From a virus (Duplodnaviria; Heunggongvirae; Uroviricota; Caudoviricetes), in IMG/VR virus record IMGVR_UViG_2651869782_000025: DNA of 64,000 bases; one strand, given 5' to 3'. The position numbers were made by a program. Shown here piece by piece: positions 37,701-43,700 of the stretch; within the stretch, counting starts at the first letter, position 1, and each line of letters opens with the position of its first letter.

Positions 37701-40700
37701 GCTATATCGTTATGACTGGATTGCGGCCGCTGATGTTTTGTTCGGGAAAACACCTACCTGGCAGCAGGATCTGATTATTGAGTCCGTGCAGGAACAGGGT
37801 AGCAAGACATCTGTTTCGTCAGGCCACGGTACCGGGAAATCGGATATGACCTCTATCATGATCATGCTGTTTATAATCATGTATCCCGGTGCCCGCGCCA
37901 TTATCGTTGCGAACAAAATTCAGCAGGTAATGACAGGTATATTCAAGTACATCAAGATAAACTGGGCTACGGCCACCAGCCGTTTTCCATGGCTTGCTGA
38001 TTATTTTGTTCTGACAGAAACCGCTTTCTACGAGGTTACTGGTAAAGGGGTGTGGACTGTAGTACCGAAGGGCTTTCGTCTGGGAAGTGAAGAAGCTCTC
38101 GCAGGTGAACACGCAGATCATCTTCTGTATATTATCGATGAAGCCTCCGGTGTCAGTGATAGGGCTTTCGGTATCATCACCGGTGCTCTTACCGGACAGG
38201 ATAACCGCATCTTATTACTGTCACAGCCTACACGCCCAAGCGGCTATTTCTACGATACACACCATAAACTGGCCAAGCGTCCTGGTAACCCTGATGGCGT
38301 TTATACGGCGATCACGCTTAACAGTGAGGAATCACCGCTGGTAACGCCAGCATTTATCAAAATGAAGCTGGCGGAGTACGGCGGGCGTGATAACCCTATG
38401 TACATGATTAAGGTACGCGGCCTGTTTCCTAAATCACAGGATGGCTTCCTTCTTGGACGTGATGAGGTTGAACGTGCAACGCGGCGGAAAGTCAAGATTG
38501 CCAAAGGATGGGGCTGGCTTGCATGTGTGGACGTTGCTGGTGGTACGGGACGGGATAAGTCCGTTATCAATATCATGATGGTGTCCGGCCAGCGAAATAA
38601 ACGCCGTGTAATCAACTATCGAATGCTGGAATACACAGACGTTACAGAAACGCAGCTTGCCGCCAAAATTTTCGCAGAATGCAATCCTGAGCGATTCCCA
38701 AATATCACCATAGCGATAGACGGCGATGGCCTGGGTAAAGCAACGGCGGATCTGATGTACGAGTATTATGGTATTACCGTACAGCGTATACGCTGGGGTA
38801 AAAAGATGCATAGCCGTGAAGATAAGAGCCTGTACTTTGATAAACGTGCTTATGCCAACGTTCAAGCCGCAGAGGCCGTAAAATCTGGTCGTATGAGACT
38901 GGATAAGGGTAATGAAACTATTGAGGAAGCGTCGAAAATCCCTGTAGGGATTAACTCCGCAGGTCAATGGAAAGTGATGAGTAAGGAGGATATGAAGAAA
39001 AAACTCAACCTGCACTCACCAGACCATTGGGATACATATTGTTTCGCTATGCTGGCGGATTATGTTCCTCAGGATGAAGTGCTTAGCGTCGAAGACGAAG
39101 CGCAGGTTGATGAAGCTCTGGCATGGCTTAATGAATGAATATTTGCTCTAATAAATTGTGTTTTTTAACTGCCGATGTTACATTGAGCCTGACCTCTTGC
39201 GCCTTGAGGCATTTTCGGTTTATGCTTATCAGGCACCTCATTAAAACGGGTGCCGGGATTGGAACCCCGGATAATGCAAAAGGCGACACAGACGCCAAAA
39301 GCGTCTTTTTTTGTGTCATGCCATCGCACAGCCATACGTAGCACATAGCTCCGAGATCAATGGTAGTGCTGGCTGGGCTGCCGAAAGGCAGGCCGGTTCC
39401 CTTTTGCGCCGGTAGTTCCAACCCAGTCAGTGCTACCGCCATTGAGATTGGAACCTCACGCGGTAGCTCCTTAAGTTAGCAAAAGGAGGCTGCCATTATG
39501 GCTACTATCCCTACCCCAACTCACCCTGAATTTATCTGGCGCTTTTATTCCTGCCAGAAACGTCACTATCACTTCGTTATTGCACCGACAGAAGATGAGG
39601 CTCGCTCTCAGCTTCCTGATGCACCCTGCATTTTCTCCGCCCGTTTTTCTACTGATTCGCGCAATTCTCTCAGTTACTGGTGCCTCCCTGTTAACGCTTC
39701 TGCTCGGGAGGGGCTATGAGAACATCGTTAGTTACCCGTGAAGAGATGATCGAGGCAATTGAACAGCACACTGCCTGTATCAGCACCAGGGATATACCGG
39801 GCGTTATTGCCAACTACTTCATGATCACCAAGCAACTTTACCGGAGAAAGGACAAGAACGCTGTTCACCGTATCCTGCTGTCTGATATCCGCGAATACCT
39901 GCTCGAACAGGGTCATCTGAATTACGCAACCGTAGCAGCTGAAACACGCAAGGAGGCACACAGAATGAAAGCAACTAACGTTAAATCAGAAAAAATTCAT
40001 GCACCTTCAGTTCAGGAATCGGAGCTGGTGGTTGCTCAAAATCAGCCTGATGAAATTCCCGTTCTGGAGTGGCAGGGAGTACGTGTCGTGACAACCGAAA
40101 CTCTTGCTAGAGGGTATGGGGTCGATGAAGCCAATATTCGCAACAATTTGTCTCGCAACCTTGACCGCTTTGAAGAAGGTAAGCATTACTTTCTTCTAAC
40201 TGGTTTAAAATTAAGAGAATTTAAGAACAGAGTAACCGGAAGTTACTCTGTTGGTAAGAACGCCAGAAGCCTTACACTCTGGACAGAGCGCGGCGCTGCA
40301 CGCATGTCTAAGATCGTGGACACAAATGAAGCATGGGCATTCTTTGAAAAACTGGAAGACAGCTACTTCCGGCAAAAAGAACAGCAACCGGTTGCAATCC
40401 CCCAAACATTACCAGAAGCCCTACGCCTGGCTGCCGAACTGGCTGAACAAAAGCAGCTTCTGGAACAGAAAGCCCACCAGCTAAATCAGCAGCTGGTGGC
40501 CGCCGCTCCTAAGGTCGATTTTGCCGACCGGGTATCAGTGGCCAAGGGGATCCTGATTGGGAATTTTGCAAAGGTTGTTGGACTTAAGCAAAACGCGCTG
40601 TTTGCCTGGTTACGGGAGAACGGCATCCTGATAGCGTCCGGTGGACGTAAAAATGTGCCGTTCCAGCAGTACATCAACGCGGGGTATTTCACGGTGAAAG

Positions 40701-43700
40701 AAGTGGTGCTGGATGATGAAGATGGCTACCAGATACGGTTGACGCCTCAATTAACGGGGAAAGGCCAGCAGTGGTTGACGCGTAAACTGCTCGATGCTGG
40801 CTTGTTAAAACCGGTGGCGGCTGAATAATGGAAGAATGCCCGGTTGATGCCGGGCATAATTTATTGTGCGCTTTCGGGGTTGTCGTTTACTGGCTGCCCC
40901 TTCTTAGTTTTACGGCTGCGCGTAACTGATGCGGCTGATTTGACCTTTTTCTCTTCGCGAGTGATGGCAATTTGTTTTTTTACATTTTCAATATCTGCCA
41001 GGCGATATATTTTTGCCTGCGGCCAGCGGTCGCAGATGATCGGTTCTATAGAGTCATAAAGGCTAAATTTTGCTTTCTCGAATTCACCGTTGATGATAAT
41101 TCCATCACGGAGAGTTTCATCGCAGATAAACACACCACACAGCGGCACATGGTAACTAACTGATTTACCATCATTGTAGTTAGGGCTACTGGAAATGTAA
41201 TGGACGCGCAGCATTGTTTCGCTAAAGCCGTGTACACGCATACGGAATTTTTCATCCTCCGGGTACTGCTTCATTAGCTCTTTTGTTGCTTCCAGGTTCT
41301 CTATGTATTTCGCACTGTGCTCATTGATCCCCGCGCTTTTCTGGATGCGAATGTCCTTATCAATCAGATGAATAATGCGGCCAGCGGTCATGTTGACGCT
41401 GTTCACAGCTTCTGTCTGATAAGTTGTAACCTTACGCACACCGCGAAGGATGTTAGGCACTGGATATAAAATAGTCTTTGGGATATTGAGGTCTGGGTAC
41501 TGTTCCAGTTCCCGCGCCATTAAAGTCCATTTATCAATTTCAGCCTGAATGCTGTCAGTTTCTTTGAACGGTAGAACGACAACCGGGCGTACAGGACGAC
41601 CGTCGCTGGCTGTATCAACGTGTTGGGCGCGTGCAACAGCTTTTTTTAGAAAGAGATCCCTGAAGCTGACGAACTCCTGGTACAGTTGTTCGCCGTAGAC
41701 ATAATTTATCATTGATCCTCCTCCAGAATTGACATGGTCAATAACGCCCGGCTGAGAAAACCGGTCATTACTGACCTATATTATAGAGGGATCAAACAAA
41801 AATAATAGATTTATTAGTGCATTTATTGTGAGTCTAACTGGTTAGTTGCCATGAGATATTCGATTGTGTCAGTGAGGTCATCCAGGTCGTCTTGGGTGAT
41901 GCGGTACTCCTGATTGGATATCTTTGAGTAGTGTTCAGCAATGGCGCGGGCAGCGTCGGTTTCGGCAGGGTCTACAGATAAAGCGTTAGAGCAATGTCTA
42001 ACGTCGTCGATAGTTGGTTGAATGAAAGCCATAATTATGCCTCACTGTATTGACAACACAGAGCCTGAAGCTCTGACCTACTGTTTCACCCATGATCCAT
42101 GCTGGGGTAATCTAACAACATTGCGCTGTGTGTAAGATGAGCAATGCATAGCTGTAATGCCGTTGTATAAGGTTTCCCTGTTTGCTCATTTCCTTCTGAG
42201 CCGCTCTACAACGCTGAAGACACATTAAATAGTGAATCCAAAGTCGTATTACGTAACGGCGGCAAAACTATAATTTATTAGAGCAATTGTCAAACAACTA
42301 TGAAAAACAATCCAGTTTTTAGCTGGTGGAGTGGGATTTCTCTCTCAAAATTTATTGCTCTAATAATTCTTGATTTTTTTGCGCAGCTGGACGTAAACTC
42401 CTCTTCGGACCTTATAACTTCGTATAGCATACATTATACGAAGTTATCTTAAGGTTATTGAACATGATCAATTTACCTGTAAATCCATACAGTTCAATAC
42501 CTTATCAGGTCAAATAGTGATCACTTGATCATTTGATCAAGGTTGCGCTACGTAAAATCTGCGAAATGTTGGCAGTGTTAGTGCTCCAGATTTCGCGTAG
42601 CGCACTTAGCACCACCAATCAATCAGAGGTGAAAAATGGGATATTCAGCTGCTAAAGTGTCCACTCATCTTGAGCTTGAGAAAAACCGTGGTTACTGGCG
42701 GGCAAAAGGGTTTGATCGTGATAGTTGCCAACTGTCATTATCGCGCGGTGAAGAAAAGATAGAACGCACGCGCGATCGCTGGCGTTTCTATGACGAGAAC
42801 CATAAACAGGTAAAGGCAGAGCCGATCCTGTACACTTTACTTAAAACCATTATCTGAGTGTTAAATGTCCAATTTACTGACCGTACACCAAAATTTGCCT
42901 GCATTACCGGTCGATGCAACGAGTGATGAGGTTCGCAAGAATCTGATGGACATGTTCAGGGATCGCCAGGCGTTTTCTGAGCATACCTGGAAAATGCTTC
43001 TGTCCGTTTGCCGGTCGTGGGCGGCATGGTGCAAGTTGAATAACCGGAAGTGGTTTCCCGCAGAACCTGAAGATGTTCGCGATTATCTTCTATATCTTCA
43101 GGCGCGCGGTCTGGCAGTGAAAACTATCCAGCAACATTTGGGCCAGCTAAATATGCTTCATCGTCGGTCCGGGCTGCCACGACCAAGTGACAGCAATGCT
43201 GTTTCACTGGTCATGCGGCGGATCCGAAAAGAAAACGTTGATGCCGGTGAACGTGCAAAACAGGCACTAGCGTTCGAACGCACTGATTTCGACCAGGTTC
43301 GTTCACTCATGGAAAATAGCGATCGCTGCCAGGATATACGTAATCTGGCATTTCTGGGGATTGCTTATAACACCCTGTTACGTATAGCCGAAATTGCCAG
43401 GATCAGGGTTAAAGATATCTCACGTACTGACGGTGGGAGAATGTTAATCCATATTGGCAGAACGAAAACGCTGGTTAGCACCGCAGGTGTAGAGAAGGCA
43501 CTTAGCCTGGGGGTAACTAAACTGGTCGACCGATGGATTTCCGTCTCTGGTGTGGCTGATGATCCTAATAACTACTTGTTTTGCCGGGTCAGAAAAAATG
43601 GTGTTGCCTCGCCATCATCCACCAGCCAGCTATCAACTCGCGCCCTGGAAGGGATTTTTGAAGCAACTCATCGATTGATTTACGGCGCTAAGGATGACTC

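Follow-up and report, generated by a model that had tools for sequence, protein, structure and literature searches.

P1-like phage-plasmids often carry resistance genes in Enterobacteriaceae, and coexistence, exclusion and induction among them depend on immunity. In P1-type immI, the antisense RNA C4 is freed by RNase P and represses icd and ant in trans, and the Ant1/Ant2 complex inactivates C1. The IMG/VR record IMGVR_UViG_2651869782_000025 comes from such a P1-like phage-plasmid. The stretch of 64,000 nucleotides (nt) analysed here, called the window, has an immI-like module in two places, one between pacB and c1 (module 1) and one at the classical immI site (module 2). What is module 1, and does it have an immunity specificity of its own? 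Our analysis indicates that module 1 is quite probably a complete and functional second immI-type antirepressor control cassette, of the IsrK-C4 class, and that elements with both modules probably possess two specificities of immunity. Judging from the sequences, this class has gained a C1 operator in P1-like elements and occupies their pacB-c1 spacer.

The insert between pacB and c1

The genes lpa, pacA and pacB run rightward up to 39138 and are followed by c1, coi and cre in P1 order. Homology to P1 breaks off at the pacB stop codon and picks up again at TATTG(T/C)GCGC just before the c1 stop. The spacer between the two genes is 24 nt in P1 (pacB end 93206; c1 from 93231, its stop side) and 1722 nt in the window. 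As shown in Table 1, the insert contains, in this order, a C1 operator, an IsrK-type RNA with the elements a1 and b1 and a terminator, C4, a2, b2 with the Shine-Dalgarno sequence (SD), icd and ant. The operator TTTGCTCTAATAAATTG agrees with the P1 C1-operator consensus ATTGCTCTAATAAATTT in 15 of its 17 bases, the two outer ones being the exceptions, and one base separates it from Op53. Its sequence and position are identical in the window and in all five other pacB-c1 modules checked for the operator.

An earlier note on this DNA had described two modules with one architecture (39142-40828 and 60593-62185), and all the parts that it listed were found at or near those coordinates. The leaders differ, as it had said: blastn between the modules detected no similarity of the leaders outside the operator, and the Rfam match upstream of C4 is isrK in module 1 and c4-a1b1 in module 2. 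It had also placed kilA downstream of the second module only, which agrees with what we found, since module 2 is followed by Op53-kilA and module 1 ends at a probable terminator facing c1.

Both Icd proteins have 73 amino acids (aa) and match NF033153 (phage_ICD_like) and phrog_1426. They had been called highly similar but not identical, and 51 of 64 residues (80%) are identical over residues 10-73. In module 1 the icd stop overlaps the ant start as ATGA, and translation of ant would, by analogy, be coupled to icd. The module-1 antirepressor (Ant-1) has an Ant1-type N-terminal part of 84 aa, a central ORF6N domain (PF10543) and a C-terminal KilAC domain (PF03374, 1.5e-31, residues 258-359), and it matches phrog_63 (anti-repressor Ant) over its full length (1.6e-136). 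The earlier note had the two antirepressors sharing about 80 N-terminal aa and the C-terminal domain, with different centres. We counted 52/84 identical residues in positions 1-84 and 99/110 in the last 110 (KilAC), and the centres, about 140 residues, are unrelated, with ORF6N in module 1 and no Pfam domain in module 2. At codon 84, both ant genes have retained an internal ATG with AAGGAGG upstream, at the position of the annotated P1 ant2 start. The coding capacity of module 1 is intact, with icd and ant at full length.

The antisense RNA and its targets

Both RNAs of the module-1 leader were found with Rfam (gathering scores: 45 for C4, RF01695; 50 for isrK, RF01394). The C4 copy of module 1 (C4-1) folds with -46.6 kcal/mol and a z of -5.3, and that of module 2 (C4-2) with a z of -5.6. 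Mature C4-1 is predicted at 39362-39440 from the annotated P1 c4. The recognition elements a' and b' were placed by analogy with the annotated P1 immI. Exact complements of both elements of C4-1 occur in module 1 at two upstream sites, within the isrK match, and at two downstream sites, with b2 lying over the icd ribosome-binding site (RBS).

C4-1 matches its own targets at 7 of 7 positions at both a sites and 8 of 8 at both b sites. C4-2 has b' CACUAAC and a' CUGCUAA, and its targets are TTAGCAG (twice) and GTTAGTG (twice); pairing is 7/7 at the a sites, and an 8-nt probe makes seven Watson-Crick pairs and one wobble at the b sites. The module-2 code (60791-60915) is a hybrid, as a', a1 and a2 are those of P7 (CTGCTAA/TTAGCAG) and b', b1 and b2 those of P1 (CACTAAC/GTTAGTG), and it reads as a recombinant specificity.

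Duplex energies were calculated from the recognition loops alone; full-length folding of C4-leader duplexes disregards the C4 scaffold and was uninformative. On their own modules, C4-1 gave -12.4 kcal/mol at b and -8.5 at a, and C4-2 gave -11.7 and -8.8. The cross-combinations gave -4.9 (b) and -5.9 (a) for C4-2 on module 1, and -7.9 (b) and -3.8 (a) for C4-1 on module 2, both of these at places away from the RBS. C4-1 and C4-2 have unrelated recognition sequences, and cross-pairing is predicted to be weak. P1 and P7, reported to be heteroimmune through immI (PMC6906374), are only two bases apart in a' and two in b'. Dual immunity specificity, which the earlier note had proposed, is supported at the sequence level: the two codes are unrelated, each fits its own four targets, and predicted cross-pairing is weak. 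Further C4-1 targets elsewhere in the window were isolated single 7-8-mers only, with no a/b pair among them.

We aligned ten isrK-type leaders, from sources including RCS47, pEC12-3, 673R5, pIso00270_01, D6, phiP27 and three Stx phages, and modelled the C4 scaffold with a':a2 and b':b2 as a pseudoknot of 42 base pairs. All 42 pairs are 100% paired in the ten leaders, and 22 of them have compensatory changes. The scaffold contributes 27 fully paired positions (27/27), 12 with compensatory changes; the a':a2 and b':b2 helices, also 100% paired, co-vary at 5 of 7 and 5 of 8 pairs, respectively. The upstream helices a1:a' and b1:b' are 97% and 100% paired, with five co-varying pairs each. In shuffle controls for both covariation tests, 0 of 500 attained the observed covariation score or percentage paired, and sliding the partner by one to three columns reduced pairing to 26-49%. 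Because all four helices co-vary, there is strong sequence evidence of selection for pairing between C4-1 and both its two downstream targets and its two upstream copies.

An open reading frame (ORF) of 39 codons (39360-39479, plus strand) overlaps C4-1 and stops 18 nt before the icd start. Its counterpart in relatives is annotated by PGAP as 'ash family protein', and it matches Pfam PF10554 Phage_ASH with 32.4 bits (cut-off 26). In P1-type C4 the overlapping ORF has 14 codons only, and in 673R5 it continues in frame into icd (printed sequence, by eye). Because this ORF is not conserved across C4 types, part of the members of the Phage_ASH family may be translated C4 RNA genes.

Table 1. Coordinates of the two immI-type modules and of neighbouring features in the window.
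Feature	Position	Strand	Remarks
Module 1 insert	39139-40860	+	1722 nt (1.72 kb), from pacB stop (39138) to c1 stop (40861)
C1 operator-like site	39142-39158	+	TTTGCTCTAATAAATTG; at insert start, 3 nt past pacB
Operator-overlapping promoter candidate	39156-39184	+	TTGTGT-17-TACATT; placed by eye, position relative to annotated P1 P2c4
Second promoter candidate	39197-39226	+	TTGCGC-18-TATGCT; 7 nt upstream of IsrK-type RNA start
IsrK-type small RNA	39233-39311	+	Rfam isrK RF01394, 62.4 bits
a1	39259-39265	+	TTGGAAC; hairpin loop of IsrK-type RNA
b1	39276-39283	+	GCAAAAGG; single-stranded in predicted fold of IsrK-type RNA
Intrinsic terminator of IsrK-type RNA	39290-39306 and T run	+	
C4 antisense RNA copy 1 (C4-1)	39356-39443	+	Rfam RF01695, 76.7 bits
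b' loop of C4-1	39400-39407	+	CCTTTTGC (RNA CCUUUUGC); loop of second hairpin
a' of C4-1	39415-39421	+	GTTCCAA (RNA GUUCCAA); single-stranded junction
a2 target	39448-39454	+	TTGGAAC
b2 target and icd SD	39479-39489 (b2 39479-39486)	+	GCAAAAGG running into GGAGG
icd-like gene	39498-39719	+	73 aa
Antirepressor gene ant	39716-40828	+	370 aa
Internal Ant2-type start	39965 (M84)	+	AAGGAGG just upstream
G+C-rich hairpin	40836-40857		Between convergent ant and c1; 9-bp stem then AATTTATTGT; 3 nt from c1 stop
c1	40861-41712		Convergent with module 1; stop at 40861
Classical immI (module 2)	60593-62185	+	97.1% identical to P1 immI
Op51, module 2	60593-60609		AATGCTCTAATAAATTT
P51b, module 2	60648-60676		Promoter
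a1, module 2	60708-60714		
b1, module 2	60722-60728		
C4-2	60791-60876		Rfam C4, 70 bits
a2, module 2	60877-60883		
b2, module 2	60906-60915		
icd, module 2	60924-61145		
ant1/2, module 2	61142-62185		

Distribution and specificity alleles

A 2-kb query around module 1 was covered to at least 80% in 307 PLSDB plasmid records and in four phage records, which belong to JL22, vB_EcoM-673R5 and RCS47 (two records). A synthetic empty-junction query, made of the last 400 nt of pacB and the last 400 nt of c1, matched 703 plasmids, and its halves were contiguous or nearly so in 317. P1-like pacB-c1 junctions are thus filled in about 44% and empty in about 45%. Among carriers sampled at even spacing, 15 had a full module-1 leader, and 13 of these have a second C4 leader, be it the classical immI or another, elsewhere in the same record.

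Nine elements with the pacB-c1 cassette have four a'/b' codes, each with fully compensated targets. The window, pHNSHP24-3 and pZ1323CEC0001-2 share b' CCTTTTGC and a' GTTCCAA; RCS47, pXJW9B263-2 and pB-P_26 have b' CCTTTGAC and a' GTCTCAA; pEC12-3 combines b' CCTTTTGC with a' GTCTCAA, which is also the code of D6; and 673R5 and an E. marmotae plasmid have b' CCTTGGAC and a' AGGCCAA. There are at least four specificity alleles at the pacB-c1 site, and the a' and b' alleles are found in shuffled combinations.

The IsrK-type leader was also found at the classical immI site. In the P1-like IncY plasmid pIso00270_01 (NZ_CP095126.1) it lies upstream of kilA at 1439-3270, with the same a'/b' code as module 1 and a variant C1 operator, ATTGCTCTAATTATTTT, preceding it. 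The module-1 code is present in a D6-like plasmid as well. The code at the immI site of pIso00270_01 means that natural phages exist which module 1 could silence, and its occurrence at both sites means that cassettes move between classical immI and pacB-c1. Recombination between heteroimmune relatives, another suggestion of the earlier note, gains support from the 89-90% identity (approximately) of the module-1 leader and icd to D6 immI, from the same leader type and code at the classical immI site of another P1-like plasmid, and from the shuffled a' and b' alleles.

As for the direction of change at the empty P1 junction, where the module was either deleted or never gained, a clear deletion remnant was seen in one plasmid only. 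In this plasmid, pPK8217-139kb (NZ_CP080123.1, 474-920), which is one of those with nearly contiguous query halves, a short TGGCT repeat marks the fusion of the last pacB codons with the final third of ant; the operator, the RNAs, icd and most of ant are gone.

Relation to known systems

Like P1 and P7 immI, module 1 has a C1 operator at its 5' end, a C4 of the same Rfam family and the same order of parts. Also shared are two recognition elements that each have one target upstream and one downstream, b2 over the icd SD, an Icd of 73 aa with its stop overlapping the ant start, nested Ant1 and Ant2 starts, and a C-terminal KilAC domain. Module 1 differs from them in its unrelated leader, with isrK instead of c4-a1b1 and unrelated recognition sequences, in the ORF6N centre of its Ant, in the lack of a downstream kilA-repL, and in its site between pacB and c1, convergent with c1.

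D6 has a single immI-like region (orf84-82), which shares with module 1 the IsrK-type RNA, C4 and icd, all at about 89-90% DNA identity, and the b' loop CCTTTTGC. It has a' GTCTCAA and another antirepressor, of 313 aa and Rha/Roi-like. No P1 C1 operator was found in the D6 locus within three mismatches of the consensus, and homology to D6 begins only at 39189 of the window.

The isrK-orf45-anrP region of Gifsy-1 and the isrK-C4 leaders of the Stx phages and phiP27 share with module 1 an IsrK with its own terminator, C4, an antirepressor with its RBS in b2, and the complementarity of a1, b1, a2 and b2 to a' and b'. Gifsy-1 differs in having no icd-like gene, so that the antirepressor comes directly next, in having no C1 operator, and in its lambdoid setting. 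Module 1 has no 'orf45'-type leader ORF that reaches over the antirepressor start; its ORF over C4-1 stops before icd, and icd lies between this ORF and ant. By these comparisons, the module-1 leader falls in the IsrK type of D6, the Stx phages and Gifsy-1 and not in the P1 type.

In Gifsy-1 (NC_010392.1, 34076-34329, minus strand), one RNA is matched by both Rfam isrK and c4-a1b1, and between IsrK and anrP there is a C4 gene. Here a1 is TTGGCGT (IsrK nt 26-32) and a' is ACGCCAA (nt 158-164); b1 and b2 are TCACCG, matching b' CGGTGA, and b2 precedes GGAGG. According to Hershko-Shalev et al. (2016, PMC4825925), IsrK stops at its own terminator and partial read-through feeds the antirepressor mRNA, while IsrK in trans turns on translation of the antirepressor, which acts on the Gifsy circuit. 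For the short RNA, Hfq binding and trans-activation are known in Gifsy-1 only (PMC4825925). In that work the compensatory mutants G28A/C162U and G31A/C159U proved "helix b-I" (PMC4825925), and G28-C162 and G31-C159 are, on Gifsy-1 numbering, exactly a1:a' pairs. The ORF called "orf45" in Gifsy-1 is the one lying over the C4 gene; C4 is the probable identity of the processed "orf45'" species (STnc1160), and IsrK in Gifsy-1 appears to act as a decoy for a C4 RNA, in the role of a1/b1. Neither C4 nor P1 is mentioned in the text of the Gifsy-1 paper (PMC4825925).

Venturini et al. (2019, PMC6906374; see also the RCS47 annotation FO818745) noted an 'ant' insertion between pacB and c1 in RCS47 and pTZ20_1P. 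The RCS47 insert is at the same site as module 1 and is 95% identical over 92% of the query, with another allele (b' CCTTTGAC, a' GTCTCAA). The published account describes it only as 'two short hypothetical orfs and an antirepressor gene', with no further analysis (PMC6906374). In the papers searched, no operator, C4 or IsrK RNA, or specificity is described for the pacB-c1 insert, and neither a second C4, its orthogonal polymorphic code nor the equivalence of IsrK with a1/b1 was found in the searchable literature. The insert at gene level and the classical C4 antisense control of the antirepressor were already known; a recognition of the insert as a complete second immI with its own operator and RNAs was likewise not found in the searchable literature.

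Promoter candidates and probable terminator of module 1

The first promoter candidate, TTGTGT-17-TACATT, would be the positional analogue of P1 P51a/P2c4, and its -10 TACATT is kept in pIso00270_01. The second, TTGCGC-18-TATGCT, would correspond to the constitutive P51b; D6 has TTGCGC then TATATT at the corresponding place upstream of its IsrK-type RNA, and Gifsy-1 has TTGACA then TATATT upstream of IsrK. A generic sigma-70 scan of the module-1 leader reported no promoter, both candidates having been placed by positional homology only, relative to P2c4/P1c4 of P1 and to the promoters of D6 and Gifsy-1. The hairpin between ant and c1 is a probable bidirectional terminator. One may speculate that the convergence of ant and c1 could lead to transcriptional interference if this terminator is leaky.

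Proposed mechanism

Transcription of module 1 would start from the weak promoter that overlaps the operator and from the second promoter just upstream of the IsrK-type RNA. Some transcripts would end at the IsrK terminator, giving a short RNA that shows a1 and b1, and those that read through would contain C4-1 (probably excised, as in P1), a2, b2 with the SD, icd and ant. The b' loop and the a' junction of C4-1 would pair with b2 and a2 and thus block the icd RBS, and through the ATGA overlap the silencing of icd would silence Ant too, as in P1. With a1 and b1 as decoy copies of both targets, the IsrK-type RNA could titrate C4, which fits the trans-activation by IsrK in Gifsy-1.

Since C4-1 and C4-2 recognise unrelated sequences, each cassette would be regulated independently of the other. 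A prophage with both would silence ant of incoming P1-family phages of either code and would have a broader immunity, and an incoming element with both would escape residents making C4-1 or C4-2 but not both. Such anti-immunity, also considered in the earlier note, may be the offensive side of the same dual-specificity design.

A wider proposal, which we put forward tentatively and hold as somewhat doubtful, is a two-locus RNA immunity code. Exchangeable C4 cassettes would occupy immI and the pacB-c1 site, a' and b' would co-diversify with their targets and recombine under arms-race selection, and the Gifsy-1 IsrK/orf45 system would be a C4 system with IsrK as decoy. If this is true, with about four in ten P1-like elements having a second independent polymorphic code, superinfection immunity would be set by two RNA codes and not one, and compatibility would be predictable from about 15 nucleotides per locus. 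The cassettes would also form a natural set of orthogonal antisense-RNA/target pairs. The IsrK mechanism of Gifsy-1 would be reinterpreted simply, as IsrK would be a decoy for C4, and two literatures, between which the searched texts show no cross-citation, would be united.

Alternative explanations

Several observations weigh against a functional second immI-type cassette that acts on C1. The ORF6N centre of Ant-1 is unlike P1 Ant, and the target could be other than C1; module 1 also lacks the kilA-repL that follow classical immI. Both promoter candidates are weak, at 7 of 12 positions to consensus, and the generic scan missed them. About 45% of P1-like plasmids are without the insert and deletion remnants exist (pPK8217-139kb), which makes the insert dispensable. 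Finally, the Gifsy-1 work takes the C4 region as a translated leader ORF acting in cis and not as a trans repressor (PMC4825925).

A functional cassette could also have an Ant-1 whose target is not C1 but another repressor, such as one encoded by a lambdoid or D6-like prophage, and the result would be cross-talk between co-resident prophages instead of a second P1 immunity. The ORF6N centre is typical of lambdoid antirepressors and unrelated to the P1 Ant centre, the leader class is that of the Stx phages, phiP27, Gifsy-1 and D6, and the downstream antirepressor of Gifsy-1 acts on the Gifsy circuit (PMC4825925). We nevertheless consider this unlikely, as the P1 C1 operator stands at an invariant position, the cassette adjoins c1, and Ant-1 has the Ant1-specific N-terminal 84 aa, the Ant2-type internal start and the KilAC common to P1 Ant. 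Moreover, pIso00270_01 has a leader and Ant of this type in place of classical immI upstream of kilA, which implies that the cassette can serve as the immI of a P1-like element.

A little less likely again is a C4 region that works only in cis, as a switch in the icd-ant leader, with the IsrK-type RNA as a trans-activator (the 'orf45' model) and with no trans immunity specificity. The alternative cis structures, the translated ORF over the C4 gene and the trans-activation by IsrK in Gifsy-1 (PMC4825925) agree with it, as does the 39-codon ORF over C4-1. The compensatory changes in 12 of the 27 C4 stem pairs are instead the signature of a stable folded RNA, and the overlapping ORF is not kept as a unit, given its 14 codons in P1-type C4 and its continuation into icd in 673R5. 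On the same architecture, the C4 RNAs of P1 and P7 are annotated as trans-acting antisense RNAs, and Gifsy-1 likewise yielded a processed short RNA (PMC4825925). Besides, cis and trans action can coexist.

It is very improbable that module 1 was left behind by an earlier recombination or duplication and now has no function. About 45% of P1-like plasmids, as well as P1 and P7, have no insert, and one deletion remnant exists; against this, all ORFs of module 1 are intact, the operator is invariant, and the five RNA elements that interact have kept their complementarity through divergence into at least four alleles. Since they remain complementary across diverged alleles, selection is ongoing.

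Misassembly, raised in the earlier note, would make module 1 a collapsed or misplaced immI copy. It was checked and rejected as next to impossible, as no support for it was found, the leaders of modules 1 and 2 have no detectable similarity, the arrangement recurs with identical junctions in 307 complete plasmid records and in the genomes of three phages, obtained by independent laboratories, and the insert is also described in a PacBio-based study (PMC6906374).

Other features of the window

Just upstream of module 2, positions 59182-60515 are occupied by an insertion sequence (IS) of the IS200/IS605 type, with tnpB at 59222-60430 on the minus strand and a subterminal hairpin at 60469-60508. 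It connects pro at its end (about 20.0 kb in P1) directly with P1 coordinate 48062, a place just upstream of Op51, and the P1 segment of 20-48 kb (lysis, tail, baseplate, sim) is missing between pro and Op51 at this junction. In relatives this IS lies between pro and the antiholin gene, and the best PLSDB matches all lack the pro-Op51 junction. These observations suggest a deletion or rearrangement next to the IS, and as a phage the element may be defective. Three tRNA genes lie on the plus strand at 11180-11252, 11258-11330 and 12859-12931, as expected for a P1-like genome.

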